From contig JAZODM010000019.1 in NCBI GenBank assembly GCA_045596985.1, forward strand, positions 1-54,303: a stretch of 54,303 nucleotides of DNA. Direction: 5' to 3'. Source of the stretch: Clostridia bacterium. GTDB taxonomy: Bacteria; Bacillota; Clostridia; UMGS1883. Shown in pieces: positions 1,349 to 54,303 of this stretch. Below the pieces are notes generated by a model. The model searched no databases. It worked only from the letters and a program-made list of their open reading frames with translations, and was not told the origin of the DNA. The translations under genes were made by a program, and so were the position numbers. How positions within the stretch are numbered: the stretch's first letter is position 1; each line of letters opens with the position of its first letter.

Positions 1349-1771
1349 ATGAATAACTTTGGATGTTCTTGCAGAGGCGGTTGCACGCTTCTTGCAATTG
1401 GTGCAAGTATCATTTTGGGAATTGTTGCGGCAGTTCTCAACTTTTTGGCGATTATAACCGTAACTCCTGCATTTTTATGGGTGGTTTTCGCTATCGCTGT
1501 CGTTTACCTTGCAATACTGCTTGTCGTTTCGGCAACCTCGCGCAGCTTTGCGGCACGAAGCTGTCTGTGCCCGATACTATCAGTTTTAATAACGGGAATT
1601 TTAGGCGCAATTTTAACAGCAGTAATTCTTTTGGCGGTTACCTTTGCCGCTACAAGCGGAATTGGCGCAATAATAGTCGGCTTACTGGTACTGTTTTTCT
1701 CTCTAACAATAACAACAACGGCGTGTCTTGTAAAGTGTGTTGCAAGATGTGATGATGAAGAGACGCTATAA
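1349..1771 (+). CDS. Hypothetical polytopic membrane protein with Cys clusters at both termini
   Basis: 140-aa ORF with SD GGAGGTG (1334-1340) about 8 nt upstream of the ATG. About four long hydrophobic segments. N-terminal GCSCRGGC and C-terminal CLVKCVARC. No family recognised. Confidence 0.55.
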   Translation: MNNFGCSCRGGCTLLAIGASIILGIVAAVLNFLAIITVTPAFLWVVFAIAVVYLAILLVVSATSRSFAARSCLCPILSVLITGILGAILTAVILLAVTFAATSGIGAIIVGLLVLFFSLTITTTACLVKCVARCDDEETL

Positions 1772-1956
1772 GGCTGACAAAGTCAGCCTTTCGCAACGAA
1801 AAGTTTCTAAAGAAAATGTTTCGTTGCGAGATAAGGGCTTACGCTCGCGCGGCACTCACCGTGCCAGCCCTTGTAAGGAATCAAAACCGAGGTTCACGCC
1901 CTCGGTTTTGATAAATTCAATGTTAAGGGGCATCCCCTTAACAATCCCCTTTTTTA
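1770..1956 (+). repeat. Multi-hairpin interspersed repeat, copy A
   Basis: Starts at the stop codon of the 1349-1771 ORF. Shares AAGGCTGAC-AAA-GTCAGCCTT and the GAGATAAGGGCT...CCCCTTAACA chain with 37188-37373 (+) and 48754-48915 (-). Confidence 0.85.
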
Positions 1957-1966
1957 ACGTAATAAA

Positions 1967-1997
1967 ACAGGCGTTGGGATTTTGTCCCGACGCCTGT
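1967..1997. terminator. Bidirectional hairpin terminator between convergent genes
   Basis: 13-bp stem ACAGGCGTTGGGA / GTCCCGACGCCTGT (one G-U) with a TTTT loop. T-rich tails on both strands. Lies directly 3' of the minus-strand kinase stop (2009). Confidence 0.75.
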
Positions 1998-2008
1998 TTG
2001 TGTTTTTC

Positions 2009-16965: not shown

Positions 16966-17009
16966 AAAAAGTCGCCAAATACGATGGCGTGTACCTCGTA
17001 TTTGACGAC
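16966..17009 (-). terminator. cotF-like gene terminator; solo H3-like module of the interspersed repeat
   Basis: The minus strand reads GTCGTCAAATACGAGG-TACACGCC-ATCGTATTTGGCGAC followed by TTTTT. The GAGGTACACGCC segment (last stem bases plus loop) is identical to hairpin H3 of repeat copies B and C. Confidence 0.8.
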
Positions 17010-17021
17010 TTGCTTCGTTAA

Positions 17022-17480
17022 TTAATACATACTGTTTTTCTGCATATAATCGTACAGCTGTTTACCGTGCTCCTGCTCTTCCTTTTGAATGTGATTGATT
17101 GTGTTACGGATATTTTCATCCTTGAACTCAAATACGCACGTATCATACAGGTGTGAAGCGTGCTTTTCCGTTGTAAGCAGGTCACTCGCCAAAAACGCAT
17201 CGTTCTTCTTATCCTCACTGTCAGAGGGGCCATAAAACTCCGTAAAGGTCGGGCTTTGCTGCGAAGAAGAATTACCTGAAGACTGCGCTGGAGTCTTCCC
17301 GTTTTCAATCTTTGTCAGTGTATCATAGTGTCCCTGCTCTACCTGCGCAATGGAAATAAAGAGCTGTCTTAACTGCGGATCCTTTGCCTGCTGTGCCCCC
17401 TGTGTATATTTATCAACGCACAGCTTTTCTGTGTCCTTCATATCCTTTAAAAGACTTGTTTCCTTCTGACTTAACTGCAT
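17022..17480 (-). CDS. Spore coat protein F-like (Coat_F domain) protein
   Basis: 152 aa with two Coat_F-like helical segments (LLKDMKDTEKLCVDKYTQGAQQAKDPQLRQLF and LLTTEKHASHLYDTCVFEFKDENIRNTINHIQKEEQEH). Confidence 0.7.
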   Translation of the reverse strand: MQLSQKETSLLKDMKDTEKLCVDKYTQGAQQAKDPQLRQLFISIAQVEQGHYDTLTKIENGKTPAQSSGNSSSQQSPTFTEFYGPSDSEDKKNDAFLASDLLTTEKHASHLYDTCVFEFKDENIRNTINHIQKEEQEHGKQLYDYMQKNSMY

Positions 17481-35738: not shown

Positions 35739-36470
35739 ATGGCAGAATTTTGGAGCGGACTTAAATCCGACTTTATAAAATGCTTTATAACTAAAAACAG
35801 ATGGACATTTATTACTGACGGTCTGTGGGCAACTCTTAAGATAACTCTTTTTTCGTGCCTGATGGGTATTGCAATCGGTCTTATCGTTGCAATTATCCGC
35901 AGCACATATGAGCAAAATCACAAGCGTATGCGTAAAGGCTTTGGCAAAAGCGTGCTTTGCATTCTGAATTTTATATGCAACATTTATCTTACCGTTATAC
36001 GTGGAACACCCGTTGTTGTACAGCTTATGATTATGTACTACATAATTTTTGCAAGCTCAAGTAACGGCATTTTAATTGCGGTAACGGCTTTTGGTATAAA
36101 TTCAGGTGCATATGTTGCGGAAATTTTCCGAAGCGGTATTATGAGTATCGACAACGGTCAGTTTGAGGCGGGCAGAAGTCTTGGCTTCGGGTATATAAAA
36201 ACTATGGCATATATTATTTTCCCGCAGGCTTTTAAAAGTGTTCTTCCTACCCTTGCCAACGAATTTATAGTTCTTCTTAAAGAAACATCCGTTGCAGGCT
36301 ACGTGGCTATACAGGACCTTACCAAGGGCGGCGATATTATCCGCGGTGCTACGTATGAAACCTTTATGCCGCTTTTCGCTGTTGCAGGAATTTACCTTAT
36401 TATGGTTATTTTCTTCACACAGCTTGTAAACAAGCTTGAAAGGAGGCTGCGTAAGAGTGATAACCGTTAA
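35739..36470 (+). CDS. Amino-acid ABC transporter permease (His/Glu/Gln/Arg/opine family)
   Basis: BPD_transp_1 EAA-type loop ([22 protein letters not shown]). Confidence 0.88.
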
Positions 36471-37188
36471 AAATCTCGAAAAAAACTTTGGCGAAAATAA
36501 TGAAATTCACGTTCTTAAAGGAATTGACGAAAATATCCGCAAAGGGGAGCAGGTTGTTGTAATCGGCCCCTCCGGCAGTGGTAAAAGTACGTTTTTAAGA
36601 TGTCTTAATCTTCTTGAAAACCCTACTGAAGGTCAGATTTTCTTTAATGGTGAAGAAATTACTTCTCCAAAATGCGATATTAATAAGGTTCGTCAGAATA
36701 TTGGTATGGTGTTTCAGCACTTCAACCTTTTCCCGCACCTTACAATTAAGCAGAATATCACCCTCGCGCCCGTAAAACTTGGCAAAATGACTAAGGAAGA
36801 GGCAGATAAAAAGGCAATGGAGCTTCTTTGCCGTGTAGGTCTTTCCGATAAGGCGGATGCTTACCCTCAGCAGCTTTCAGGCGGACAGAAGCAGCGTATT
36901 GCGATTGTGCGCGCTCTTGCGATGAATCCTGATGTAATGCTCTTTGACGAGCCGACAAGTGCACTTGACCCCGAAATGGTTGGCGAGGTGCTTGACGTTA
37001 TGAAGGAGCTTGCCGCTGACGGAATGACGATGGTTGTGGTAACACACGAAATGGGCTTCGCTCGTGAGGTTGCAGATACCGTAATCTTTATGGATGACGG
37101 AAAGGTTGCAGCAAAGGGAACACCCGAGGAAATTTTCGATAACCCCACACATCCAAGGCTCAAAGAATTTTTAGGAAAAGTTTTGTAA
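36457..37188 (+). CDS. Amino-acid ABC transporter ATP-binding protein
   Basis: Walker [10 protein letters not shown], signature LSGGQKQR, Walker [12 protein letters not shown]. The GTG at 36457 lies 10 nt after AGGAGG; the track's TTG start is at 36436. Confidence 0.9.
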
Positions 37189-37373
37189 AGGCTGACAAGG
37201 TCAGCCTTTACAAAAAGAAGTTTTGCAAGCAAAACATTCTCTTTCGAGATAAGGGCTTTCGCTCGCGCGGCACTCACCGTGCCAGCCCTTTATAGGAGTT
37301 AAAACCGAGGTACACGCCCCCGGTTTTAACGATTTATATTGTTAAGGGGACACCCCTTAACAAACCCCTTATT
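37188..37373 (+). repeat. Multi-hairpin interspersed repeat, copy B
   Basis: Begins on the last base of the ABC ATPase stop codon. Hairpins: H0 37188-37208, H1 37220-37235, H2 37251-37290, H3 37301-37327, H4 37342-37360. Confidence 0.88.
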
Positions 37374-37379
37374 ATGTAT

Positions 37380-37417
37380 AAAAAAATACAGAGAGAAATT
37401 TTCTCTCTGTATTTTTT
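37380..37417. terminator. Bidirectional terminator (ABC operon / ypeB)
   Basis: ATACAGAGAGAA-ATT-TTCTCTCTGTAT flanked by an A7 run and a T7 run. Confidence 0.85.
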
Positions 37418-38742
37418 TATACCGCGAGTGTTCCGCCTTCTGTTTCGAGGAGAATCTGTACGTCCTCCGTATAGCCTGTCTGTGTATTTACATACGTCAG
37501 GAAATGCTTTCCTGAAACAATACCTTTTATTTGGTAACAACATGCCTCACTGCCGTCCTCAAGGGGGATTATTGCAGTTGTTACACCTTTTATTTTAAGT
37601 CCACTGCTTACGTTTTCAAGGGCTTTTTCCTCACTTATTTTCGGTGCAGGGATTTGCCGCTGCATATGGTTCATTATATATCCGCGGCTTTCAAAGCCTA
37701 TTACCTCGCCGCTGTCAAGGGCAACCTTAACCTTTACCAAATCAGGAAAAACAACATATCCGTCCTGTTCATAGGCATAGTTTATAACTATGCTTCCGTC
37801 ACGCTTTTCATAATAGCTTTCGCGCATATCCATAAACCCGTTATCGCGCAGGAAAAGCTCTGCCTTTACCTTTGCATCCTCTATGGAAAGCGTTTCCTCC
37901 TCAATATTTCTGTCACGCATCAATAAAAGGAGTATGCCGCCATCCTTTGTGTATTCAATAACACGGTCTTTACTCTTTATACTGTAGGACGGGAGCTTTC
38001 CGTTAATTTCCGTAACGCTCACTTCCTCTTCCCCTGTAAACTTTTTTGCATAATTTATCGCCTGCTTCTTGCTTATCTGCGCCTTGCCCTTTATCAGCAC
38101 AGATTCTTTCAGTGACAAATGCTGCGAAAACGGCCCGTCATATATAAGAGAAGGATAACTGTGAAATTCTTCTTCGAGCGAGGCAAGCTCGCTCGCCATA
38201 GCAACCTTTCCGCCTCCGATAAAGCTTCCTATCTTTGACGCTGAATTACTCAGCGATATTCTCCCCTCATTTATGCCTATGAGCATATCGTCAAGGCCAC
38301 TTTTGAGTGTTTCTGCATATTGCCTTAGCTCGCTCATTGTTTTTATTTCCTTTTCGCTCATTTTTTCGCCCTTGAGCATTTTTGCGGAAATTGCGTTTGC
38401 GTATTCTCCGACCTGCGACAAAAATTCCGACGTTTTTTCAAGCTGATGTCCGTCTAAGGGTAGCAGTGCCAGATTTGCCTTTGCACCGCTTGATTGTCCG
38501 TACAAATCACCTGCAAGCTTTGCCATCTGCTGCGGAGTAGAAATAACCTGCCCCTTTAAAAGTGAAATTTCAAGGTCATCCACATACTCTGTAAGCTCTG
38601 TAAAAACTCTGTTATACTCTATCTCCCTGGCGTAGCTCAGCTCCCTTGCCCTCTTATACTGCACAATGCCAAAAACCGTTACAAGGCACAGCAGCGTTGA
38701 AAGCAGAATGTACTGTTTGCGTTTTTTTAATATTTCAAACAT
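37417..38742 (-). CDS. ypeB: Germination protein YpeB
   Basis: N-terminal membrane anchor, YpeB-type N-domain (YAREIEYNRVFTELTEYVDDLEISLLKG), and C-terminal PepSY repeats. No sleB is adjacent. Confidence 0.8.
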   Translation of the reverse strand: MFEILKKRKQYILLSTLLCLVTVFGIVQYKRARELSYAREIEYNRVFTELTEYVDDLEISLLKGQVISTPQQMAKLAGDLYGQSSGAKANLALLPLDGHQLEKTSEFLSQVGEYANAISAKMLKGEKMSEKEIKTMSELRQYAETLKSGLDDMLIGINEGRISLSNSASKIGSFIGGGKVAMASELASLEEEFHSYPSLIYDGPFSQHLSLKESVLIKGKAQISKKQAINYAKKFTGEEEVSVTEINGKLPSYSIKSKDRVIEYTKDGGILLLLMRDRNIEEETLSIEDAKVKAELFLRDNGFMDMRESYYEKRDGSIVINYAYEQDGYVVFPDLVKVKVALDSGEVIGFESRGYIMNHMQRQIPAPKISEEKALENVSSGLKIKGVTTAIIPLEDGSEACCYQIKGIVSGKHFLTYVNTQTGYTEDVQILLETEGGTLAV

Positions 38743-42153: not shown

Positions 42154-43425
42154 TTATTTTATAATTGTTTTTCCGCCCATATACGGAACAAGCACATCAG
42201 GAACTGTAATGCTTCCGTCTTCGTTCTGGTAGTTTTCTATAATTGCCGCTACCGTTCTTCCTACTGCAACACCGCTTCCGTTAAGGGTGTGAACGAACTG
42301 TGCCTTGCTGCCCTGACCATCTTTATACTTAATATTAGCTCTTCTTGCCTGGAAATCTTCAAAATTACTGCAGGATGAAATTTCAACATATCTTCCGTAA
42401 GAGGGCATCCATACCTCAATATCATACTTCTTTGCCGCGGTAAAACCAAGGTCACCGATGCAAATTCTCACAACGCGGTAGGGAAGACCTAATCCCTGAA
42501 GGACCTTTTCTGCATCATTTGTCAGCTTTTCAAGCTCTTCATAGGACTCCTCGGGCTTTGTAAACTTAACAAGCTCAACCTTGTTGAACTGATGCTGACG
42601 GATAAGTCCGCGCGTATCTCTTCCTGCGCTTCCTGCCTCTGCACGGAAGCAAGCGGTATATGCAACATGTTTAATAGGAAGGTCTTTTGCATCAAGTATC
42701 TGTTCGCGGTACATATTTGTAACGGGTACTTCTGCCGTAGGAACGAGGAAATAATCGGTATCTGCGACCTTAAATGCATCCTCTTCAAACTTAGGAAGCT
42801 GACCCGTTCCCACCATTGAATTTCTGTGTACCATAAACGGAGGGAATACCTCTGTATATCCGTTTTTCTCGGTATGTGTATCAAGATAATAGTTAATAAC
42901 TGCTCTTTCAAGTCTTGCGCCGGCATCCTTATACACAGTAAAGCGCGCACCCGTTATTTTCGCAGCTGTGTCAGGGTCAAGAATTCCCAAATCCTTACCT
43001 AAATCCCAATGCGCCTTCGGCTCAAAGCCAAAATCTTTAGGCTCACCGAATTTTCTGATTTCTATATTATCCTCGTCAGTATCTCCGTCGGGAACGTCAT
43101 CACTGGGAATATTGGGGATTGTCAGCATCATACGGTTAAGTTCATCCTCAACCTCTCTTGTTTTTGCATCAAGCTCCTTGATTTTTTCTGAAATTTCTTT
43201 CATCTGGGCAAAAACCTCGGTAGTATCCTTTCCCTCTTTCTTCATTACGGGAATCTGCTTTGTAACCTCGTTCTGCTTTGCTTTAAGTGCCTCCGCCTCA
43301 ACTAAAAGAGCGCGTCTTTTATCGTCAATTTCGATTATTGCATCGATATCAACAACTTCTTTTCTTCTTCCCAGAGCCTTTTTTACCCTTTCCGTTTCTC
43401 CTCTGATAAGTTTAAGGTCTAACAT
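42154..43425 (-). CDS. serS: Serine--tRNA ligase
   Basis: [10 protein letters not shown]... with an N-terminal coiled coil and class II motifs ([30 protein letters not shown]). The track ORF extends 10 codons further upstream. Confidence 0.95.
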
Positions 43426-43470
43426 TTTAAAACTTCCTTTCGTATTTATAAGCAATTATTATAATCAATT

Positions 43471-44319
43471 TTAATCAAGCAAATCAACTATTCTGGTAAG
43501 GTCTGCCACGCTGTAAAACTCAAGCTCAATTTTTCCTTTTTTTACGCCTTTTATCCTTACCTTTGTACCGAATTTCTGTGAAAGATTTCTTTCAACGTCA
43601 CCGTATGCGCTTACTTTAGAGCTGTGCGGCGATTTTTTAGGTGCAGCTTTTTCATCCTTAAGAGCCTCTGCCTGCCTTACATTAAGTCCCTCTGCAACTA
43701 TTTTCCTTGCTGCTTCAATGCGGCTCTTCCCCTCCGGAAGGGATAGGAGCGCCCTTGCATGCCCCATTGTAAGGGTGTTTTGTGCAAGCATTTCCTTTAT
43801 TTCGTCTTCTAGGGAAAGAAGCCTTAGCATATTTGCAACATTACTTCGGCTTTTGCCCACTCTTTCGCTGACTTTATCCTGCGTCATCGAAAATTTGTCC
43901 ATAAGGGTCTTGTAACCAAGCGCCTCTTCTATAGGGTTGAGGTCTTCCCTCTGCAGATTTTCAATAAGTGCAACCTCTGCAATCTGCATTTCGTCATACG
44001 TTCTTACAATTGCAGGAATTTCCGAAAGGTTTGCAAGCTTTGACGCCCGCCATCTTCTTTCTCCCGCTATTATACTGTAATAGCCGTTTTCTCCCTCTGT
44101 AACTATTATAGGTTGTATTACGCCGTGCTCCGAAATAGAATTTGCCAATGCCTGCAACTGTTCGCGGTCAAAATTCTTTCTGGGCTGGTCGCGTCTTGGC
44201 TCGATAAGGCTTGTCCTTATCATTCTTACCTCGCCCTGCTCTTTTTCCGTAACATCTTCTTCAGGCAAGCCGCTTTTGGAGAAAAGAGCGTCAAGTCCCT
44301 GTCCCAAAACTCTCTTCAT
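43471..44319 (-). CDS. spo0J: Chromosome partitioning protein ParB/Spo0J
   Basis: GERRWRAS, IENLQREDLNPIEEA, and HTH SERVGKSRSNVANMLRLL. Confidence 0.93.
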   Translation of the reverse strand: MKRVLGQGLDALFSKSGLPEEDVTEKEQGEVRMIRTSLIEPRRDQPRKNFDREQLQALANSISEHGVIQPIIVTEGENGYYSIIAGERRWRASKLANLSEIPAIVRTYDEMQIAEVALIENLQREDLNPIEEALGYKTLMDKFSMTQDKVSERVGKSRSNVANMLRLLSLEDEIKEMLAQNTLTMGHARALLSLPEGKSRIEAARKIVAEGLNVRQAEALKDEKAAPKKSPHSSKVSAYGDVERNLSQKFGTKVRIKGVKKGKIELEFYSVADLTRIVDLLD

Positions 44320-44320
44320 C

Positions 44321-45109
44321 TTAATCCTCCTGTTCTTTTTCAGAATCTATTGAAGTAATAAGTTCTGTCGCAAGCTCCATATAGCTTTGTGCACCTGCGC
44401 AGGAGCCATCGTAATATATAACCGGTCTTCCAAAACCGGGGGCTTCGCTTATCCTTACATTTCGGGGGATAATTGTTGAATATACCTTTCCCGGAAAAAA
44501 CCTTTTCACCTCGTCAACAACCTGCACTGCGAGATTTGTCCGCGCATCGTACATAGTCATAACTATTCCCTGTATAAAAAGTGTTGGGTTTAATGCTTTT
44601 TTTATTCTTTTAATCGTTTCTGTAAGCTGACTTACACCCTCAAGCGCGTAAAATTCGCACTGTATAGGTATAAGAACACTGTCTGCCGCCGTAAGGGTGT
44701 TTATTGTGATAAGTCCGAGCGAGGGCGGAGTATCTATTAAAATAAAATCGTATTCTTCTTTTACGGATTCAAGACTTTCCTTTAGTCTGCTTTCCCTTCC
44801 CATTACGCTTATAAGCTCTATCTCCGCGCCGGAAAGGTCTAAGTTCGAGGGGCAAAGGCTCAGATTTTCGTACTGCGTCTGCACTGCAACATTTCCCATC
44901 TTTTCCTCGTTAATAAGGCAATCATAAATGGTTTTCTCACAACGCCTTTTATCAACGCCGAGTCCGCTTGTGGAATTACCCTGCGGATCTATGTCAATCA
45001 GCAATACTTTTTTTCCGAGTTTTGCAAGGCAGGCTGCAAGATTTACCGTTGTTGTCGTTTTCCCCACGCCGCCCTTCTGGTTTGCAATTGCAATTATCCT
45101 GCTCAACAA
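44321..45109 (-). CDS. soj: Chromosome partitioning ATPase ParA/Soj
   Basis: Deviant Walker A NQKGGVGKTTT; 262 aa. TTG start (45109 or 45106) after GGGGG. Confidence 0.93.
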   Translation of the reverse strand: MLSRIIAIANQKGGVGKTTTTVNLAACLAKLGKKVLLIDIDPQGNSTSGLGVDKRRCEKTIYDCLINEEKMGNVAVQTQYENLSLCPSNLDLSGAEIELISVMGRESRLKESLESVKEEYDFILIDTPPSLGLITINTLTAADSVLIPIQCEFYALEGVSQLTETIKRIKKALNPTLFIQGIVMTMYDARTNLAVQVVDEVKRFFPGKVYSTIIPRNVRISEAPGFGRPVIYYDGSCAGAQSYMELATELITSIDSEKEQED

Positions 45110-45125
45110 AATTCCCCCTTTTTTT

Positions 45126-45149
45126 CATTATAGCATACATTATAGCACA
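45126..45149 (-). promoter_or_regulatory. Tandem 12-mer duplication carrying two TATAAT boxes upstream of soj
   Basis: The + strand reads CATTATAGCATA CATTATAGCACA. The minus strand reads TGTGCTATAATG TATGCTATAATG. Confidence 0.55.
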
Positions 45150-45153
45150 TAAA

Positions 45154-45169
45154 TGTTTCACGTGAAACA
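45154..45169. promoter_or_regulatory. parS site (perfect TGTTTCACGTGAAACA) upstream of soj-spo0J
   Basis: Exact 16-bp palindrome, extended to 22 bp (AAATGTTTCACGTGAAACATTT). It overlaps the -35 position of the upstream TATAAT. Confidence 0.9.
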
Positions 45170-45218
45170 TTTTTTTATCTTTTTTTGCAAAAAAAGCCGC
45201 ATTTTTTTAAAAATGCGA

Positions 45219-46016
45219 CTACCTTTTATATATTTTTAAAGAAAATTCGCCATATTCTTCGTTTTCCTGCTGAAAAAGCTCTACCCTTGCCCCGTTTCTC
45301 TTAAGCAGCTCCACCGTTTTTTTTATGGTATTTATGTATACGGGCATTTTTTCCTTTGTGCTTTTATCTTTAAAGGATTTAGATTCCCATATGCGCTTTT
45401 GCGCCATTTCCTTTACTTCTTCTTTTATTGCTTTTGAAAAGCTGGTAAAAGACCAATCCTCTTTTTCCGCTTTTTCTATGATTTCAAGCTGCTTTTCCTC
45501 ATCGCGCAGCTTTAAAAGTTCCTTTGCAAACTTTTCATTATACCCTTTTTCCTCAATTTTATACCTGACCTTTTCGCTTAGTCCCAGAAGACGCACTTTA
45601 TCATTAATTCTTAACCATTCAAGACAAAGAACTCCGAGAAGCTTCTCCCTCTTTATCCTATGATATGCCATCAAATTATAGTACCCCTCCGCCTCCTCGC
45701 AAAAAGAGAGGTTTTCACGCTGTAGATTTTCTATAAGTGTAAGCTGGGCGCACTGCGCATCCCCTGCCTTCACAATAATAGCGGGGACTTCCTTTATACC
45801 TGCCATTATTGCTGCCCTTAGTCGCCTCTGTCCGCATACAAGCTCAAACCCGCCAAAAGCCCCCCGCACAATAACAGGGGAGAGCATTCCGTTTTCCTTT
45901 ATGGAGAGGGAAAGCTCCTCCAGCTTTTTCCTATCAAAATTTCTTCTTATCTGATAGGGGTTTGGGGAAATATCAGCAGTCTTTATCATTTTAATCTTCT
46001 GTGTGGTGCGTATCAT
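45219..46016 (-). CDS. ParB-family paralog (Noc/Spo0J-like) with divergent motifs
   Basis: ParB N-domain (ISPNPYQIRRNFD, IENLQRENL), but GQRRLRAA replaces GERRxRA and the HTH region is divergent (LEWLRINDKVRLL). Confidence 0.8.
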   Translation of the reverse strand: MIRTTQKIKMIKTADISPNPYQIRRNFDRKKLEELSLSIKENGMLSPVIVRGAFGGFELVCGQRRLRAAIMAGIKEVPAIIVKAGDAQCAQLTLIENLQRENLSFCEEAEGYYNLMAYHRIKREKLLGVLCLEWLRINDKVRLLGLSEKVRYKIEEKGYNEKFAKELLKLRDEEKQLEIIEKAEKEDWSFTSFSKAIKEEVKEMAQKRIWESKSFKDKSTKEKMPVYINTIKKTVELLKRNGARVELFQQENEEYGEFSLKIYKR

Positions 46017-46139
46017 AGTAAACAGTCCTTTCTATGATACTATTTTAACATACAAACAAGACATATTAAAGATAAAGTTTTCGCCTTATTCCCGCCATTT
46101 TTCTTTTAAAAACGCTCTATTTTTCCTATTTTGACAATT

Positions 46140-46853
46140 TTAAACAATCGGCTCTTTACTCGGCTTGCCTGCCTTTCTGGGGTATTTTGAAGGTGTATTT
46201 GAAATTTTCTTGATTATTACAAGGCAGTGGTTAATTCCCGACGGCAAAAATACTTCCTTAACCTCTTCTATCTGTCCGCCCATTTCCTTTATGGCGCGTT
46301 TTGCGTTATTTATTTCTTCTTCGGGTGCATTTCCCTTTAATGCAACAAAATATCCGCCAACTCTTACAAACGGCAGCGCATATTCAGCAAGAACTGCAAG
46401 GTCTGCAACGGCGCGCGCCGTCGCCACATCAAATTTTTCACGCAGAGCTTTATCCTTTCCGCCGTCTTCTGCACGAAAATGGATTGCTCTTGCTTTTTCT
46501 ATACCCAAGTTGTTAATTACCTCGTTTAAAAAGCCAATACGTTTATTAAGCGAATCAAGCATTGTGAGGTTTATGTCCTCTCTTACTATCTTGACGGGAA
46601 GCGACGGAAACCCAGCACCTGCGCCTATATCAATCAGGCTGCAGCCTTCCTGAAGCTTTTTACTTGTTATAAGCGTAAGGGAATCAAGAAAATGCTTTTC
46701 TCTTATTTCATCAGGCTCTGTAATTGCAGTAAGATTCATAACCTCATTATACTCAAGCATTATTTGCGCATATTTTTCAAGATTATTTTGCATTTTTGGA
46801 GTGATTTCTATATCAAATTTAGCAGCTTCTTTTATTAAATCCATTTTTATCAC
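46140..46853 (-). CDS. rsmG: 16S rRNA (guanine527-N7)-methyltransferase
   Basis: GidB pattern ([35 protein letters not shown]). Confidence 0.9.
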
Positions 46854-48724
46854 CTTTTCTCATCATTCTTTGTTGCAAGGTAAATAAGAAGGACACCTAT
46901 GTCCGCAGGGCTTACACCGCTTATTCTGCTTGCCCTTCCTATATTTTCGGGGCGCATTTTTTCAAGTTTCTGGCGTGCCTCTGTCCTAAGGCCGTAAACC
47001 TTTGAATAATCAATATCCTGAGGTATCATTTTCTTTTCATTTTTTGAAAAACGCTCTACCTGTTCAAACTGCCTTTTAATATATCCTTCGTATTTTACTG
47101 CAATTTCAGCCTGCTGCCAGTGTGTTTTTTCAAGCTCAGGCCTTTCTTTGTCAAAAGGAGCAAGCTCTTCATAACAAAGCTCCGGTCTTCTAATAAGCTC
47201 TGCAAGCTTAATACCGGTTGTAAGGAGTTGACTTCCATTTTTTTCCAGATATTCGTTAATTTCTTTTGTCGGCGCGATGTTTACAGAATTAATTCGTTCT
47301 ATCTCTTTTTCTATATTTTCTTTTTTCTCAAGGAATTTTTTGTATCTTTCCTCTGAAATAAGGCCTATTTCATATCCTTTGGGAGTAAGGCGCAAATCTG
47401 CATTGTCCTGGCGCAACAAAAGTCTGTATTCTGCCCTTGAGGTAAGCATTCTGTAAGGCTCATTCGTTCCTTTTGTAACAAGGTCGTCTATCAAGACCCC
47501 TATATATGCCTCACTCCTGTCAAAAACAACGCTGTCAAGACCCTTTAGCTTTCTTGCCGCGTTTATCCCTGCCATAAGTCCCTGCGCCGCAGCCTCTTCA
47601 TATCCGCTCGTTCCGTTGAACTGCCCTGCTCCGAAAAGACCGGGTATTTCGCGCATTTCAAGTGACGGCTTTAGCTGCAACGGGTCGCAGCAGTCATATT
47701 CTATTGCATATGCACTGCGCATTATTTCAACATTTTCAAGGCCTTTCATCGTTTTTAGCATGGAAAGCTGAACATCCTCAGGAAGGCTCGTACTCATTCC
47801 CTGAAGGTACATTTCCTGTGTAGAAAGGCCCATAGGCTCTATAAATATCTGATGACGCTCTCTGTCTGCAAAGCGTACAACCTTATCCTCTATAGAGGGG
47901 CAGTATCTCGGCCCTATTCCGTCGATAAGACCGTTAAAAAGAGGACTTCTGTGAAGATTTTCTCTTATTATCTCGTGTGTTTTCGTATTTGTGTACGTAA
48001 GATAACAGCAAACCTTATTTTCCTCCTCCTTTGTTGTTTCAAAGGAAAACGGAACAATTTCCTCGTCGCCCTCCTGCTTTTCAAGAACAGAAAAATCAAC
48101 ACTTCTTGCGTGAATTCTTGTAGGCGTTCCCGTTTTAAAGCGCATCATTTCAACACCTAATTTCTGCAGACTTTCACTAAGTCCGTTTGACGGGAAAAGT
48201 CCGTCAGGGCCGCCGCTGTAGGCAGTTTCGCCTATTATTATTTTGCTTTCAAGATACGTCCCCGTTGAAATTATGACGCATTTAGAATAAAATTTTGTAC
48301 CCGTATGTATGGTAAGGGTAAATATATCGTTATCTTTTTGAATTTCTTTTACCTCGGCCTGCCTTATATAAAGATTTTTTTGCTCTTCAAGGCGCTTTTT
48401 CATTTCAATCTGATATGCGCGTCTGTCTGCCTGCGCGCGCAATGAATGTACCGCAGGCCCTTTCCTGAGGTTGAGCATCCTTGTCTGAAGTTTTGTGAGG
48501 TCTGCCACCTTTCCCATTTCACCGCCAAGTGCATCTATCTCCCTCACAAGGTGACCCTTCGCCGTTCCGCCTATGCTTGGATTACACGGCATATTTGCAA
48601 TGGAATCAAGGTTTATTGTAAGGAGAATTGTCCTCATTCCAAGCCTTGCTGATGCGAGTGCCGCCTCACATCCTGCGTGACCTGCACCTATAACGGCTAT
48701 ATCGTAATTAAATGTGTTATCCAT
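46850..48724 (-). CDS. mnmG: tRNA uridine-5-carboxymethylaminomethyl modification enzyme MnmG
   Basis: [19 protein letters not shown] motif; about 624 aa. The ATG at 48724 follows GGAGGA by 4 nt. The track start at 48736 has no SD. Confidence 0.95.
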
Positions 48725-48753
48725 AATTTCCTCCATACTTAATAACTAAAGCT

Positions 48754-48915
48754 ATAAAAGGGGGTTTGTTAAGGGGATACCCCTTTACATAAAATTCGTT
48801 AAAATCGGGGGCGTGTACCTCGATTTTAACTCCTTACAAGGGCTACCGCGGTGAGCGGTGCGCGAGCGTAAGCCCTTATCTCGAAAGAGAATGTTTTGCT
48901 TGCAAAACTTCTTTT
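48754..48915 (-). repeat. Multi-hairpin interspersed repeat, copy C (lacks H0)
   Basis: The reverse complement aligns with copy B from AAAAAGAAGTTTTGCAAGCAAAAC to CCCCTTAACAAACCCC. It starts directly at the mnmE stop codon and fills most of the mnmE-mnmG spacer. Confidence 0.88.
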
Positions 48916-50247
48916 TCACTTACCGAGGCAGAATTTTTCAAATATCCTGTCTACGGTTTCCTGATTAATACTTATACCCTCAGCCTCTCCCAAAAAAGCT
49001 ACCGCCTGACCGATGTCTATGGCTGCAAGGTCACTGAAAAATCCCTCTTCAAGTGTAGCGATTGCTTTTTTAATGCTTTCAGATGCGCGCAGCACAGCTT
49101 CATACTGCCTTTCGTTTGCTATAAATGCACTTGATGGGGTGTTTCCCACAATATCTGAAACAGCTTTTTTTATTTTATCTATTCCCTCGTTATTTTTTGC
49201 ACTTATTTCTATATATTCTTCTTTTATATTATCTTTTAAATCAACCTTATTTGCAACGAGAATATATTCCTTCTCCTTTATTTTTTTGAGGATTTCCTCC
49301 TCTTCTTTTGTAAGACTGCGTCCGCTTTCCGTTACAAAGATACATATGTCTGCGCTTTCTATATAATCAAACGATTTTTCAACGCCTATACTCTCTACCA
49401 CATCTTCGCTTTCGCGTATTCCCGCAGTATCACCGAATTTTACAGGAATTCCGTCTATATCCGTATATTCCTCTACTACATCACGGGTTGTTCCTGCTAT
49501 ATCTGTCACTATTGCCTTCTTTTTTTCGACAAGCGCATTTAAAAGTGAGCTTTTACCCGTATTTGGTATTCCGCAGATTGCACACGTTATTCCGTTATTA
49601 AGTGCCTCACCGCGTCTTGCCGTTTTTTTAAGAGATTCTAACTCATCTTTTATATTTTCAAGCTTTTCCTTTAGCTCTCCGCCTGCAAACGTATCAATGT
49701 CCTCTTCGGGAAAATCACTTGAAACCTGTATTGCCGCCAGTAAATCAAGAAGAAGCTGCCTTATCTTTATAATCGGCTTTGTTATCGCACCCTCTAATCT
49801 GTTTACTGCCGCAAATAACGCTTTATCCGTCTTTGCCTCTATTATATCATTTACCGCCTCTGCCTGGGTAAGGCTCATTTTTCCGTTTAAAAATGCCCTT
49901 TTTGTAAATTCACCTTTTTTTGCCATAGATGCTCCGTTTTCAAGGAGTGCATCTATTATTCTTTCCACACTCAGGGGGGAGCCGTGGCAGCTTATTTCGC
50001 ACACATTTTCACCGGTAAAGGAATTAGGTTTCCTAAAAACCGATACAAGACATTCGTCAATTTCCTTTTCTTCAAAAACTGCCTTTCCATAGACTATGGT
50101 ATATCCGTCAGCCTCTGTTATTTTTTTATTTGATTTTATTACTTTTTCCGTTATAGAAAGTGCGTTTTCACCACTCACCCTTATAACGGCAATTCCACCC
50201 TTACCACGTGGGGTAGAGAGGGCACAAACCGTATCATTTTCAAACAT
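48916..50247 (-). CDS. mnmE: tRNA modification GTPase MnmE
   Basis: GGIAVIRVSG, G-domain GIPNTGKSSL / DTAGIR / NKVDL, and C-terminal FCLGK. Confidence 0.95.
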   Translation of the reverse strand: MFENDTVCALSTPRGKGGIAVIRVSGENALSITEKVIKSNKKITEADGYTIVYGKAVFEEKEIDECLVSVFRKPNSFTGENVCEISCHGSPLSVERIIDALLENGASMAKKGEFTKRAFLNGKMSLTQAEAVNDIIEAKTDKALFAAVNRLEGAITKPIIKIRQLLLDLLAAIQVSSDFPEEDIDTFAGGELKEKLENIKDELESLKKTARRGEALNNGITCAICGIPNTGKSSLLNALVEKKKAIVTDIAGTTRDVVEEYTDIDGIPVKFGDTAGIRESEDVVESIGVEKSFDYIESADICIFVTESGRSLTKEEEEILKKIKEKEYILVANKVDLKDNIKEEYIEISAKNNEGIDKIKKAVSDIVGNTPSSAFIANERQYEAVLRASESIKKAIATLEEGFFSDLAAIDIGQAVAFLGEAEGISINQETVDRIFEKFCLGK

Positions 50248-50343
50248 TTATATCACCTCTAAAAAAAAGAGGCAAAAGAATTTTTCTCATAAGAATAGTT
50301 TTCTTACAAGAAAGACCTTTCACCTCTTTCTCTCTTTATTTAT

Positions 50344-51036
50344 TTACTCTGTTTTAAGCTCGTTTTCCTTACGGTTATAACGATACTTTGACACATAATC
50401 ACTGCCGTATTCTTTTTTCTTTGTTGTTATTACTATGCAGCGATTGGGATCCTTACCCGTGGAATATGTTGTTATATTTTTATATTCCTGAAGAGTAGAA
50501 TGTATTATTCTTCTTTCATTGGGGTTCATCGGCTCGAGTGTTACGCTCTTTCTGCTTCTTGAAACAATGCCTGCCATCCTTTTTGCAAGTTTTTTAAGAG
50601 TTTCTTCCCTTTTACCTCTGTAATTTTCAGTATCAATAGTAACTCTTATATAATTTTCCTCACCCTTGTTTACAACAAGTGATGTAAGGTATTGAAGCGC
50701 GTCAAGCGTATCTCCCCTTCTTCCTATTACCTTTCCAACCTCTTCGCTGTCGCCTACAATTTCTATGTTTACTGTTTCATCCTCATAGGAAGATTTCAAA
50801 GCTGCTTCTATTCCAAAGCTCTTAATTATATCAGACACATAATTTTCTGCCTTTTTAAGGGGATTTTCCTCCATAGAAACCTTTACCCTTGCTTCCTCAG
50901 CGCCAAGTCCCAGTATACCTCTTTTTCCTTCGTTTATTACTTCTATCTCAACATCGTCCCTTGATGCGCCAAGCTCTCTGAGTGCAGCTTCAACAGCTTC
51001 ATCAATGGTTTTTCCGCTTTTTTCTATTATTATCAT
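50344..51036 (-). CDS. jag: Jag/KhpB RNA-binding protein (Jag_N, KH, R3H)
   Basis: MIIIEKSGKTIDEAVEAALRELG, the KH segment VIGRRGDTLDALQYL, and R3H EPMNPNERRIIH. Confidence 0.88.
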   Translation of the reverse strand: MIIIEKSGKTIDEAVEAALRELGASRDDVEIEVINEGKRGILGLGAEEARVKVSMEENPLKKAENYVSDIIKSFGIEAALKSSYEDETVNIEIVGDSEEVGKVIGRRGDTLDALQYLTSLVVNKGEENYIRVTIDTENYRGKREETLKKLAKRMAGIVSRSRKSVTLEPMNPNERRIIHSTLQEYKNITTYSTGKDPNRCIVITTKKKEYGSDYVSKYRYNRKENELKTE

Positions 51037-51868
51037 AATTATCTTTCCTTTCAGAAGGCATATCTTCTTCCATTTTTTTATTTATTACATTTGTTATTAC
51101 AGCTTGCTGAATTATCTGTGCCACAGTTGAAACAAACCAGTAAAGTGACATTCCTACCGGCATTGTATACGTGAAAAATGCCGTCATTATAGGCATAATG
51201 GTCATCATTGAATTTGACATTGACTGCGCCTGCTCATTTGCGCCGTTACTGCTTGATTGCATCTGCTTTTTTGAAATCTGTGCAGACCATATCGTCGATA
51301 AAACTGCTAAAACAGGGAATATCCAAACAAGTAAATCAGTCTCATTTCCCTTTACCATACGTGTAAGATCTATTCCCCAGAAATCAAAGTTAATGGGTTT
51401 TTTACCAAGGGCTATTATCTGCTCACTCACGCCCTCCATCCCGCAAAGCGTTACCTGATACGTTGTTACGGTAGCACCAACCGCCTCTTTAATTTTATCA
51501 ATCTGGTCAACACTGAGCTGAAGAATATATCTGAGCGGGTCATATACAACACGTATAAATCCGAAAAGTACAAACATCTGCACTATAAGGGGAAGACATC
51601 CGCCCATAGGATTTACATCGTGCTTTCTGTAAAGCTTTTGCATTTCTATGCTAAGCTTTTCTTTATCATTTTTATATTTTTGCTGCAGCTTTTGAAGCTC
51701 CGGCTGAATAAGCTGAGTTTTAGACGTACTTTTCTGAGACATTACAGTAAGCGGAATTGTAAGAATTCTTATAAGAATAGTAACTATTATAAGAGTAATT
51801 CCGTAATTTTCTATTATGTTGTAAATAAACCTTGTCAAAAAGGCAAGGGGCTCTGCTAAAATATACAT
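51002..51868 (-). CDS. yidC: Membrane protein insertase YidC/SpoIIIJ
   Basis: 60-kDa IMP core (GGCLPLIVQMFVLFGF, LYWFVS) and a basic C-terminal tail. Overlaps jag by 35 nt. Confidence 0.9.
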   Translation of the reverse strand: MYILAEPLAFLTRFIYNIIENYGITLIIVTILIRILTIPLTVMSQKSTSKTQLIQPELQKLQQKYKNDKEKLSIEMQKLYRKHDVNPMGGCLPLIVQMFVLFGFIRVVYDPLRYILQLSVDQIDKIKEAVGATVTTYQVTLCGMEGVSEQIIALGKKPINFDFWGIDLTRMVKGNETDLLVWIFPVLAVLSTIWSAQISKKQMQSSSNGANEQAQSMSNSMMTIMPIMTAFFTYTMPVGMSLYWFVSTVAQIIQQAVITNVINKKMEEDMPSERKDNYDNNRKKRKNH

Positions 51869-51883
51869 TTTCTTTCTCCTTTT

Positions 51884-52102
51884 TTACGGAACGGGGTCAT
51901 ATCCACCTTTACAAAAGGGATTACACCTTAAAATTCTCCTTACAGACAAATAAAGCCCCTTTAAAACACCGTACTTCTCAACAGCCTCAATGGCATATTG
52001 TGAGCATGTCGGCGTAAAGCGGCAGCAAGGTTTTTTAAGCGGAGATATATATTTTCTGTAAAGCTTAACTACACATATAATAATTTTCTTAATCAAGCTC
52101 AT
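51884..52102 (-). CDS. yidD: Membrane protein insertion efficiency factor YidD
   Basis: [45 protein letters not shown] is the hallmark CRFxPTCSxY motif. The track ORF extends to 52135. Confidence 0.88.
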
Positions 52103-52445
52103 CCCTTTTAAGAAGCCCGCTGTCATAAAGCGCACCCTTCAAATCTTTTCCAATCTCTTCATAATTTGCAAATGCAGCACTTTTCCTTGCTACAATTACA
52201 ATATCATATCCGTTGGATATACCCTCTAAAAGTCGGTAGTTTTCTTTTAAAAGCCTTCTGATTCTGTTTCTTTTAACTGCGTTTCCCACTTTCGGTGAAA
52301 CGGTTATTCCCAGTCTATTATAGGAAAATCTGTTTTTTCTGTAATATATAACCAGTCTTTTTTTAACCTGGGAGCTTCCTCTGTAATAAAGCCTTTTAAA
52401 ATCACTGTTTTCTTTAATGGATACTGTTTTCATTTTTTTACACAC
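52089..52445 (-). CDS. rnpA: Ribonuclease P protein component
   Basis: Basic 118-aa protein containing [23 protein letters not shown] (RNR motif), lying downstream of rpmH. Confidence 0.9.
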
Positions 52446-52463
52446 AGAGTGTGTTCTTTCTGC

Positions 52464-52598
52464 TCAGGCAGAAAGAACACGTCTGCCTCTCTGACGGCGT
52501 CTTCTGAGAACCTTTCTTCCGTTAGCGGTACTCATTCTTTTTCTAAAGCCGTGATCCTTTTTTCTTTTTCTTACATTTGGCTGATAAGTTCTGAGCAT
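52464..52598 (-). CDS. rpmH: 50S ribosomal protein L34
   Basis: [44 protein letters not shown] (44 aa), with SD GGAGGTG upstream. The track's 80-aa ORF is an upstream extension. Confidence 0.96.
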
Positions 52599-52674
52599 TT
52601 TTGTGCACCTCCTCATTTTATAAAAAGCCTTTAAGGGGCTATTCTTCTCAATCATATCATAACGATACCAACAT

Positions 52675-52703
52675 AGTATACATAAACTTGTCTTTTTTGT
52701 CAA
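52675..52703 (-). promoter_or_regulatory. SigA-type promoter of the rpmH-rnpA operon
   Basis: The minus strand reads TTGACA (52703-52698), a 17-nt spacer, then TATACT (52680-52675). Confidence 0.75.
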
Positions 52704-52731
52704 CAATTATTTTATTTTTTTTAATTTTAAG

Positions 52732-52760
52732 TTGAATTTTGATCTATTATTTGGTATAAT
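52732..52760 (+). promoter_or_regulatory. SigA-type promoter of dnaA
   Basis: TTGAAT (52732-52737), a 17-nt spacer, then TATAAT (52755-52760), about 165 nt upstream of the ATG. Confidence 0.65.
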
Positions 52761-52782
52761 AAATTGAATGTTTATTTTTAAG

Positions 52783-52875
52783 TTTTTAACAGTTTTATTG
52801 CTTATTTTTGAGTTATTAACAGATTTTTTGCGAATATGCCTTAATTTGGCTACTTTTTAACAGTTTTTATTAACA
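52783..52875 (+). promoter_or_regulatory. Cluster of four same-strand 9-mers TT(T/A)TTAACA (candidate non-canonical DnaA boxes / oriC part)
   Basis: TTTTTAACA at 52783-52791 and 52854-52862. TTATTAACA at 52813-52821 and 52867-52875. All lie between the dnaA promoter and the ATG. No CCACA or TGTGG core occurs in 52707-52925. Confidence 0.5.
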
Positions 52876-52925
52876 AGCCTGTTTAAAACTTTCATTCTTT
52901 TATTATTTATAAAGGACTGTTTATT

Positions 52926-54230
52926 ATGGTATCTGATTTAATCAAAATGTGGACAGAATGTCTCATTCTTTTAGAGGAGGAGGTTACTCCTGTAGGGTTT
53001 AATACGTGGATAAAGGATATTAAGCCGCTTAATATGAATGATACTACACTTACTCTTTCTGTAAGTACGTCAATTATCAAAAATATGGTAGAGATGCGCT
53101 ATTGTGACCTTATTAAAAACACAGTTGCGCAGATAACGGGTAAAATCTACGATATTGAATTTGTGATAGGCGATAATTTTTCCTCACAAACTAAAAAGGC
53201 AGATTACCACAATACTTATCAGAAATATACTTTTGATAATTTTGTAGTAGGTAATTCAAATCGTTTTGCACAAAGTGCGTCACTTGCCGTTGCAGAATCA
53301 CCTGCATATGCATATAACCCTCTTTTTCTCCACGGTGGAGTGGGTCTTGGAAAAACGCATCTTATGCACGCTATAGGTAATTACATAAAGGCTAATGACC
53401 CCGACGCAAAGATTGAATTTTTAAGTGCAGAAACCTTTACTAATGAGCTTATAAATTCAATTAAAGATAATAAAAATCAGGAGTTTCGTGATAAATACAG
53501 AAATATTGATGTACTGCTTGTTGACGATATTCAGTTCATTGCAGGAAAAACAACAACCGAGGAGGAGTTTTTCCACACCTTTAACACCCTTCACGAGGCT
53601 AATAAACAGATAGTACTTACAAGCGACAGACCGCCTAATGAAATAAGAACACTTGAAGAAAGGCTTCGTTCAAGATTTGGATGGGGACTTATCTGTGATA
53701 TTCAGCCGCCTGATTACGAGACGAGAATTGCTATTTTACGTAAAAAGGCACAGAATGAAAATATAATTATAAGCGACGAAATAATAGAGTTTATAGCACA
53801 AAAGATAAAGTCAAACATTCGTGAGCTTGAAGGTGTATTTAACAGAGTTGTTGCTTACCGCGGACTTATAAATAAAGAAATAACCATTGATGTTGCGATG
53901 GAGGCTCTTAAGGATTACGGTGAAAGCAGTGAAAAGAAAATAACCCCCGACTATATTATAGAGAGCTGTGCTAAATTTTATAATGTTAAGAAAGAGGATA
54001 TTTATTCTGAAAAAAGAAATAAGGAGATTGCCTTTGCACGTCAGGTTTCCATCTATATTATAAGGGAAATTACAAATTATTCTTTCCCTAAAATAGGTGA
54101 TATTTTTGGAAAAGACCACGCAACTGCAATTTATGCCATAAAGCAGATTACAAAGCTTATGGAAAATGATTTAAGCGTTAAAATTAATATAGAAGGACTT
54201 ATAAATGACATAAAGGGCGCAGCTAATTAA
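52926..54230 (+). CDS. dnaA: Chromosomal replication initiator protein DnaA
   Basis: AAA+ Walker A GGVGLGKTHL, Walker B LLVDDIQF, sensor RSRFGWGL, and a C-terminal domain IV with the atypical signature FGKDHATAIYA. Confidence 0.96.
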   Translation: MVSDLIKMWTECLILLEEEVTPVGFNTWIKDIKPLNMNDTTLTLSVSTSIIKNMVEMRYCDLIKNTVAQITGKIYDIEFVIGDNFSSQTKKADYHNTYQKYTFDNFVVGNSNRFAQSASLAVAESPAYAYNPLFLHGGVGLGKTHLMHAIGNYIKANDPDAKIEFLSAETFTNELINSIKDNKNQEFRDKYRNIDVLLVDDIQFIAGKTTTEEEFFHTFNTLHEANKQIVLTSDRPPNEIRTLEERLRSRFGWGLICDIQPPDYETRIAILRKKAQNENIIISDEIIEFIAQKIKSNIRELEGVFNRVVAYRGLINKEITIDVAMEALKDYGESSEKKITPDYIIESCAKFYNVKKEDIYSEKRNKEIAFARQVSIYIIREITNYSFPKIGDIFGKDHATAIYAIKQITKLMENDLSVKINIEGLINDIKGAAN

Positions 54231-54250
54231 CAGCTTCCTGTTAATTAACA
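54224..54250 (+). promoter_or_regulatory. Two TAATTAACA 9-mers flanking a TTAACAG-CTTC-CTGTTAA hairpin at the dnaA stop
   Basis: TAATTAACA at 54224-54232 (overlapping the stop codon) and 54242-54250. A related TTTTTAAACAG lies near 54285-54295. Same core as the upstream 9-mers. Confidence 0.4.
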
Positions 54251-54303
54251 TTTTATAAAAAAAAATTTTAATTTTTTTAAACTCTTTTTAAACAGTCAAA
54301 AAT

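Follow-up and report, generated by a model that had tools for sequence, protein, structure and literature searches.

The window examined here, the whole 54,303-nt stretch of contig JAZODM010000019.1, contains three full-length copies of a repeated multi-hairpin element, designated A, B and C, at 1770-1956 (+), 37188-37373 (+) and 48761-48915 (-). An initial annotation of this DNA had placed three copies here and described each as a chain of hairpins (H0 to H4), with the stretch of copy B as the reference copy. All three were located both by reading the sequence and by a covariance model (CM) trained on 25 copies, and the hairpin chain is present as described. Copy A follows an open reading frame (ORF) of 140 amino acids without a Pfam match (1349-1771), whose TAA stop at 1769-1771 overlaps H0. 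Copy B follows the ORF of an ABC-transporter ATPase (36436-37188), and copy C follows mnmE, whose TGA stop lies at 48916-48918. Each copy begins, as had been claimed, at the stop codon of a same-strand ORF. The features of the copies and their flanks are as follows (RBS, ribosome-binding site; J2/3, the junction between H2 and H3).

1770..1956 (+): copy A, full element, 211.6 bits with the CM, after the TAA of ORF 1349-1771
1770-1790 (+): copy A, H0
about 1793-1829 (+): copy A, H1 (allele a)
1833-1872 (+): copy A, H2, with the 11-nt bulge TACGCTCGCGC
1880-1912 (+): copy A, H3
1922-1942 (+): copy A, H4
1942-1949 (+): copy A, tail CAATCCCC
1965..1999 (+): intrinsic terminator 3' of copy A called by the scanner, belonging to the host locus and not to the repeat
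37187..37209 (+): copy B, H0, AAAGGCTGAC-AAG-GTCAGCCTTT, overlapping the last two bases of the TAA at 37186-37188
37216..37240 (+): copy B, H1 (allele b), an imperfect hairpin around GTTTTGC-AA-GCAAAAC
37251..37290 (+): copy B, H2, with an invariant outer helix AAGGGCT/AGCCCTT, a covarying inner helix GGCAC/GTGCC and the loop TCACC
37258-37268 (+): copy B, invariant 11-nt H2 bulge TTCGCTCGCGC
37291..37298 (+): copy B, J2/3, TATAGGAG, a conserved junction with Shine-Dalgarno-like consensus AGGAG/AGGTG
37298..37330 (+): copy B, H3, a covarying stem GTTAAAACCG/CGGTTTTAAC with the invariant apical sequence GGTACACGCCC
37341..37368 (+): copy B, H4, GTTAAGGGG-ACA-CCCCTTAAC, plus the single-stranded tail CAAACCCC
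37380..37419 (no strand): an A7-palindrome-T7 seen by eye between the convergent ABC ATPase and ypeB genes, not part of the repeat
48761..48915 (-): copy C, H1 to H4 plus tail without H0, 177 bits with the CM, between the mnmE stop and the mnmG RBS and start (48736)

A MAFFT alignment gives 87% identity between copies B and C across 155 aligned nt, within the 85-90% over about 160 nt that had been judged by eye. Copy A had been noted to share H0 and the 3' two-thirds with copy B, and these parts are 84% and 85% identical, respectively. In H1 the two copies are merely 53% identical; the different sequence in copy A still forms a long hairpin. Three diagnostic sub-patterns occur 2-3 times each in the window, as opposed to 0.00-0.04 expected from dinucleotide shuffles of it. 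The missing H0 of copy C is a secondary loss, as the orthologous copy in a close relative (L083) retains it. The annotation had also listed separate terminators after copies A and B. The former was called by the scanner, whereas the latter is a palindrome seen by eye and not flagged by the scanner; it is a probable bidirectional terminator common to the ABC ATPase and ypeB genes. No terminator was detected by the terminator scan between mnmE and mnmG, and the location of copy C inside this gene pair without one supports the proposal that this family, of structured RNAs or of REP/MITE-like repeats, is something other than the terminator.

Pattern scans and the CM reveal a family of about 34 copies at about 28 distinct loci in metagenome-assembled genomes (MAGs) of gut Clostridia and in metagenomes. 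An exact pattern, run against one genome per species, returned 10 true copies, spread over six MAGs of gut Clostridia from human, goat, sheep and roe deer, and one chance match in Altererythrobacter. A looser two-gap pattern, run against metagenome contigs, added 18 further loci; the bulge TTNCGCTCGCGC was present in every true match though the pattern did not demand it. The CM recovered every copy found by pattern and added a second one to L047. It also detected two in the sheep MAG GCA_017505525.1, both in the origin region, one after dnaN (181 bits) and a degenerate one between gyrB and gyrA (91 bits). Two subfamilies can be distinguished. The window-type subfamily, that of copies A, B and C, has an H0 of GGATGAC-AAG-GTCATCC or GGCTGAC...GTCAGCC. 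In its sister subfamily, the UMGS755 type, H0, H1, H3 and the outer part of H4 have all been rewritten, while AAGGGCTTTCGCTCGCGC, the H3 apex GGTACACGCCC, the GGGG/CCCC of H4 and the ...CCCC tail are retained.

The annotation could not assign the element to a known class and had called for a comparison with Rfam. No family in Rfam 15 reaches its gathering threshold anywhere in the window. When copy B and five other loci were searched in E-value mode, only unrelated sub-threshold matches that do not recur between copies were obtained, those on copy B being driven by the downstream terminator or of a microRNA-type noise. Literature searches found no description of the element. It is a real, uncatalogued, lineage-specific, multi-copy family of modular structured repeats of about 190 nt in uncultured spore-forming gut Clostridia.

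The position of the element relative to genes was examined at 23 window-type copies representing 21 loci. At all of these a long same-strand ORF stops 0-4 nt before H0 or at a TGA inside H0. The latter arrangement, with the TGA within the 5' arm, is found in four copies at three loci (L032 and L077, which share the same atpG locus, L046 and L073). The orientation is sense at 21 of 21 independent loci, for which the chance probability is about 5e-7. Accordingly, the claim that the element always abuts a stop codon holds for the window-type subfamily and fails for its sister. The UMGS755 type is not strictly sense, with one copy antisense to its neighbours (L034) and two lying upstream of divergent genes (L057 and L072). 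Within the window the strand of a copy follows that of the gene (A and B on the plus strand, C and a solo H3 hairpin described below on the minus strand) and not one replication direction. Because window-type copies are in sense and start at the stop, they must be transcribed as 3' untranslated region (3'UTR) or intercistronic RNA; the annotation had predicted as much, and the sense position at about 21 independent loci in other genomes supports it.

Gene contexts called with Pfam are mnmE|mnmG, dnaN|S4-domain gene and gyrB|gyrA. Others, assigned from terminal peptides rather than by search, we take to be atpG|atpD, ybaB|recR, grpE|dnaK, E2|lpd, O-acetylhomoserine sulfhydrylase|metA, yicC|remA and secF|x. 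Many of the copies thereby lie between cistrons of core operons, namely in the three Pfam-called pairs and probably in atpG|atpD. The remaining copies are found where a gene ends opposite a convergent one. After an intercistronic copy the RBS and start of the next gene come at a distance of 7-40 nt, and after a gene-terminal copy there is an ordinary, locus-specific terminator. About half of the copies precede a gene start, and the neighbouring genes have no functional theme in common. The upstream proteins finish at normal C-termini (for example MnmE, ...FCLGK), so the element follows the native stop and does not truncate the gene. These canonical C-termini, together with a reading frame that is open through the element, led to the rejection of stop-codon supply as a general explanation. 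Since a tight operon leaves a single viable slot, from stop to RBS, the abutment is partly explained; this slot leaves unexplained the spacing of at most 4 nt of gene-terminal copies and the tightness of the 5' side alone. Targeting of the IS200/IS605 type was also rejected, as the 4-5 nt to the left of the element are not constant.

A consensus fold computed with RNAalifold contains five hairpins and has compensatory double changes at 31 of 49 pairs. Covariation statistics were obtained for a fixed structure of 47 pairs in 25-31 sequences. Standard pairs occupy 95.4% of cells as against 81.4% when partners are shuffled, a value that none of 500 shuffles attained, and 54.5% or less once sliding by 1-3 columns has misaligned the partners. 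Double changes occur at 31 of the 47 pairs, versus 9-11 in the slid controls. The hairpins of the candidate structured RNA are thus strongly supported by covariation. The inner 5-bp helix of H2 has three covarying positions (GGCAC/GTGCC versus ACCGC/GCGGT). No variation is seen in the outer 7-bp helix of H2 (AAGGGCU/AGCCCUU) or in the GGGG/CCCC core of H4, and some 30 bases in junctions and loops hardly vary, even in the sister subfamily with nearly all of its stems rewritten. The alignment shows that compensatory substitutions have kept the five-hairpin pairing and that selection acts on the fold and on many of its unpaired bases.

Orthologous copies are conserved at least as much as the coding sequence (CDS) that flanks them. 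Identity is 92% against 78% for the CDS in the pair L033/L038, 82% against 76-79% in L069/L047 and 90% against 83-91% for window copy C and L083. Turnover is seen at the mnmE|mnmG site, the only one that is comparable, as gene order differs at the A and B sites in the relatives reached via YpeB and a ROK protein. Both the window and a relative whose MnmE is 92-93% identical carry the element; relics remain in relatives at 84% and 87% (an H0-like hairpin plus TTTCnAAAAGAAG, or the stub alone), and those at 77% and 71% have a plain spacer of 10-14 nt. One deletion relic in the mnmE-mnmG spacer (L107:5542-5599) consists of a degenerate H0 and TTTCCTAAAAGAAGTTTT. Another (L106:11336-11356) consists solely of TTTCTAAAAGAAGG, which seems to serve now as the mnmG RBS. 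Carriers hold 2-4 copies per 21-54 kb, whereas about 155 kb from eight related loci in related MAGs yielded none, so the family is patchy. Modules have also been exchanged. The orthologues L032 and L077 at atpG|atpD have flanks that are 91-92% identical, yet their H1 hairpins are entirely different alleles. Among the copies, each of the four possible combinations of an H1 with an H2 inner-stem allele occurs. These findings indicate that copies recombine with or convert each other.

Signs of insertion are found in the sister subfamily. At five of seven UMGS755-type loci (L034, L039, L057, L059 and L082) direct repeats of a locus-specific, terminator-like hairpin flank the copy. The duplications measure 28 nt in L082, 39 nt in L057, about 26 nt in L039 and at least 17 nt in L034; that of L059, about 37 nt, is imperfect and has compensatory differences. 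The left copy of the duplicated hairpin is without its T tract and the right copy is intact, a pattern that reads as an element inserted at a terminator's foot, the hairpin being duplicated in the process. These target duplications point to mobility at the DNA level. Four of the same loci (L034, L039, L059 and L082) carry a 3' extension with a TATAAT box, which is TTGGATTATAATATAGTTTTTCGAC in L039, L059 and L082 and diverged in L034; the duplication at L057 comes without it. For the window-type subfamily, the statement that terminal inverted repeats are lacking is borne out, as the ends (AAGGATGAC... and ...CAATCCCC) do not match each other, and no flanking direct repeat of at least 10 nt was found at 25 copies. 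The sister subfamily has an inverted match of only 7 of 11 positions (GAGCGTGTCGA versus CAGACNGTCGA).

These observations suggest a new mobile repeat akin to REP, ERIC and BOX on which selection acts through the RNA, as a structural module of the mRNA placed after the stop, a reading to which we give a probability of roughly 0.5. The element would have spread as non-autonomous mobile DNA, the sister subfamily still showing terminator-adjacent insertion with long duplications, and would have been retained solely where its sense RNA is tolerated or useful. By analogy with the REPs of E. coli, H0, lying within the ribosome's footprint at termination, would tie the end of translation to the fold; REP hairpins less than 16 nt away from a stop codon stall ribosomes and lower translation in that organism (PMC12306157). 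The stable array of H1 to H4 would block 3' exonucleases and insulate adjacent cistrons. In this way the element would determine, segment by segment, how stable operon mRNAs are, and their stoichiometry, without ending transcription. Intercistronic stem-loops set operon stoichiometry and segment stability in the cip-cel operon of Ruminiclostridium cellulolyticum (PMC10311766). These stem-loops are likewise clostridial and intercistronic, with transcript-segment abundance as their function, the one inferred here; they differ in being locus-specific and simple rather than a dispersed, conserved multi-hairpin family. The job of the element is thus probably to tune the fate of mRNA after or between genes.

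Several points weigh against this interpretation. Transcription of the element is a deduction from its position. Both strands fold equally well (folding energy z of -9.0 for sense and -8.2 for antisense). G.U cells number 31 (one invariant U.G left out), several of them fixed within a subfamily, and A.C cells 15, all sporadic; this excess lends modest support to the sense strand as the selected fold, and it is merely about 2:1. The high conservation of orthologues could partly reflect gene conversion and not selection, and the patchiness and deletion relics imply that individual copies are dispensable. The window-type copies, which have neither terminal inverted repeats nor target duplications, leave the route of spread and the exact stop-codon placement without explanation. 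Lastly, a post-stop structure module accounts for position, orientation, read-through and persistence but under-explains the invariant core: some 30 invariant unpaired bases, an invariant 7-bp helix and a Shine-Dalgarno-like junction would be superfluous for a simple stabiliser or insulator. For this reason rival explanations are retained.

The invariant bases, helix and junction suggest a specific partner or a conformational switch. This is the basis of an alternative that we regard as unlikely overall, in which the element is a dedicated functional RNA, either a self-cleaving ribozyme or a sensor of a ligand or protein, acting as a termination-coupled switch and with mobility secondary. The ribosome would melt H0, the AAGGG, CCCUU and CCCC boxes would re-pair, and operon mRNAs would then be punctuated by the conserved core, through cleavage or through a recruited factor. 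Such an RNA would suit the invariance of the H2 bulge, H3 apical loop and tail across two subfamilies whose stems are fully rewritten, the strict distance of 0-4 nt from the stop to H0, and the conservation of orthologous copies in essential operons, which exceeds that of the CDS. Zero covariation, moreover, is seen in the outer H2 helix and the H4 core in 25-31 sequences in which all other helices covary, as expected if the boxes have several pairing partners. The element has two AAGGG and three CCC(U) boxes, and in the minimum free energy fold of copy B GAUAAGGG is bound to the 3' tail and H2 does not form; these features are compatible with alternative pairings and do not demonstrate them. 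An all-against-all covariation scan, itself confounded by the two-clade phylogeny, yielded just an extension of H4 and no additional covarying long-range pair. Pairings of the tail with J2/3, of the H2 loop with J2/3 and of the H2 bulge with the H3 loop were rejected by eye as not consistently complementary across copies, and a T-loop reading of the H3 loop was ruled out because position 5 is C and not A. The element resembles no ribozyme or riboswitch family in Rfam, and its neighbours lack a common theme. H0 is absent from window copy C, L037 and the degenerate gyrB|gyrA copy, and H4 with the tail from L036, L063 and L073, so that hairpins are missing from otherwise intact copies (all of these save gyrB|gyrA). 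The gyrB|gyrA copy has also lost the H2 bulge, and close relatives have deleted the element from mnmE|mnmG without replacement. A new class of post-stop device, a mobile structured RNA that would operate solely when set against a stop codon and in which the ribosome unfolds H0, the boxes re-pair and the core self-cleaves or recruits a factor, thereby punctuating or tuning essential operon mRNAs (gyrB|gyrA, dnaN, mnmEG and probably atpGD), is quite improbable.

It is also doubtful that the element is purely selfish miniature mobile DNA whose hairpins are recognised, as DNA or single-stranded DNA, by a transposase acting in trans, the sense post-stop bias marking harmless sites. This would accord with the patchy, lineage-specific distribution and its relics, with the shuffling of modules between copies, with the equal folding of both strands and, in the sister subfamily, with long duplications at terminators, the terminal match and mixed orientation. 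However, in MITEs (transposable elements of the miniature inverted-repeat type) the ends are conserved, whereas here the ends (H0, H1 and outer H4) are the most variable parts and the interior is invariant. All 21 loci are in sense, and the gap to the stop stays at 4 nt or less also at gene-terminal sites, which could harmlessly accommodate a longer one. Subfamilies have fixed G.U pairs, A.C pairs occur as singletons, and orthologues are conserved above the flanking CDS over about 22% nucleotide divergence. The Pfam scan of the window, which covered 20 ORFs within 85-26232, found all of them to be housekeeping, with neither a transposase nor a reverse transcriptase (RT) among them, consistent with the annotation's remark that no transposase is present.

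It is highly improbable that the element terminates or attenuates transcription or serves the downstream gene as a riboswitch-type 5' leader: although some copies (A, C, L037 and L057) end in CCCC and a short T run and a gene start follows about half of them, the element sits inside obligatorily co-transcribed operons with no terminator detected at copy C, gene-terminal copies have separate terminators of their own, many copies have no downstream gene and about half face a convergent one, and the downstream genes are unrelated (mnmG, gyrA and an S4-domain gene and, by our own assignment, atpD, recR, dnaK, lpd and metA).

Comparison with known systems places the element nearest to dispersed bacterial repeats. 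Like the REP/BIME and REPIN-RAYT systems of Enterobacteria, it consists of interspersed, transcribed extragenic hairpins in 3'UTRs and between cistrons; REPs also protect upstream mRNA, interfere with the terminating ribosome when close behind a stop, and evolve in concert by gene conversion. They differ in being single palindromes of 20-40 nt, which face either way, frequently form inverted pairs and have a conserved 5' tetranucleotide and a cognate RAYT; the element has 190 nt, five different hairpins and a conserved unpaired core, is strictly sense in its window-type form and makes no inverted doublets. No RAYT (Y1 transposase) was found among the 20 ORFs scanned (85-26232 of the 54-kb window). 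ERIC (IRU) and pneumococcal BOX sequences are structured repeats of about 100-200 nt in transcribed intergenic regions; BOX copies are modular and mosaic, and ERIC is conserved between species with presence polymorphic at orthologous sites. Nonetheless ERIC is one long imperfect palindrome found in both orientations with TA duplications, the modules of BOX have no sequence or architectural similarity to the element, and neither is known to abut stop codons systematically as the window-type element does. Group IIC introns insert in sense just after intrinsic terminator hairpins, as the sister subfamily does. They are not known to duplicate the hairpin, and the element is at least threefold too short and has no RT; a group II intron was rejected, there being no match to Rfam Intron_gpII or D1-D4 and no domain V. 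IS1630, of the IS30 family, targets and duplicates inverted repeats or terminators, with variable target duplications of 19-26 bp (PMC2853133), and so offers the published precedent for five of the seven sister-subfamily loci (17-39 nt), in which subfamily the terminal inverted match is weak; the window's own subfamily shows no duplication.

Other classes were considered and set aside. A MITE is not indicated, as the window-type element has no terminal inverted repeat and no short target duplication at 25 copies. A tRNA- or tmRNA-like element was rejected since ARAGORN finds no such gene in the window. An integron attC site was rejected because the flanks are syntenic core genes (mnmE/mnmG, dnaN and gyrB/gyrA) and the element is a hairpin chain; no integrase was found among the 20 scanned ORFs or the called genes of the origin-region loci.

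If the preferred reading of a mobile post-stop structure module is true, the family would be a Clostridia counterpart of REP, ERIC and BOX that differs from them in its unpaired core, conserved in the manner of a riboswitch or ribozyme, and in its strict sense placement at stop codons, even in essential operons. It would offer a natural system for the interplay of the terminating ribosome and a downstream RNA fold in Firmicutes, a structured-RNA candidate that could enter Rfam as a new family, with at least 30 covarying examples, and a marker of genome dynamics (gain, gene conversion and deletion relics) in abundant uncultured gut and rumen bacteria. The sister subfamily would be a second natural case of insertion with long duplication of a terminator hairpin.

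The window holds one further sequence of this kind, overlooked by the initial annotation.

16971..17009 (-): a solo H3-type hairpin found by the CM, GTCGTCAAATACGA-GGTACACGCCA-TCGTATTTGGCGAC, followed by T5

This hairpin carries the family loop GAGGTACACGCC and begins 12 nt past the stop of a CotF-like spore-coat ORF (17022-17480, Pfam). It is probably, to judge from its position and T run, the terminator of the CotF-like gene, and could be what is left of a full element or else a module that stands alone. The ypeB and cotF-like genes mark the host organism as a spore former. Positions 42154-54303 form the replication-origin region, with the same gene order as in relatives: serS, parB, parA, a second parB-like gene, rsmG, mnmG, mnmE, jag, yidC, yidD and rnpA, then dnaA at 52926-54230 (+).

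A phage origin of the element was rejected, as all 15 IMG/VR matches to an 18-mer of the core were chance matches and the CM had none. A 25-mer of H4 and the tail matched 31 phage contigs, which have in common with the element a 28-nt module alone. This module, GTTAAGGGGAAACCCCTTAACAATCCCC (H4 plus tail), is identical in the phage contig family L001-L031 (IMG/VR; for example L012:6703-6763), where it closes a noncoding region of 0.6-1.3 kb that has the lysis genes on one side and the tape-measure gene on the other. The CCCC tail could base-pair with a GGAGGGG run immediately upstream of the module. Outside the 28 nt the phage loci are not homologous to the element (CM 12-21 bits), and the four searched against Rfam 15 had no match at the gathering threshold; the region may encode an unknown phage noncoding RNA. 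Among the clostridial copies, three loci from one metagenome (L046:3920-3950, L050:1679-1710 and L047:10460-10490) share an extra conserved motif, AATTYCCTATACGRKAAWAAAA, about 10 nt 3' of the CCCC tail and before the host terminator, which may be an optional sixth module.

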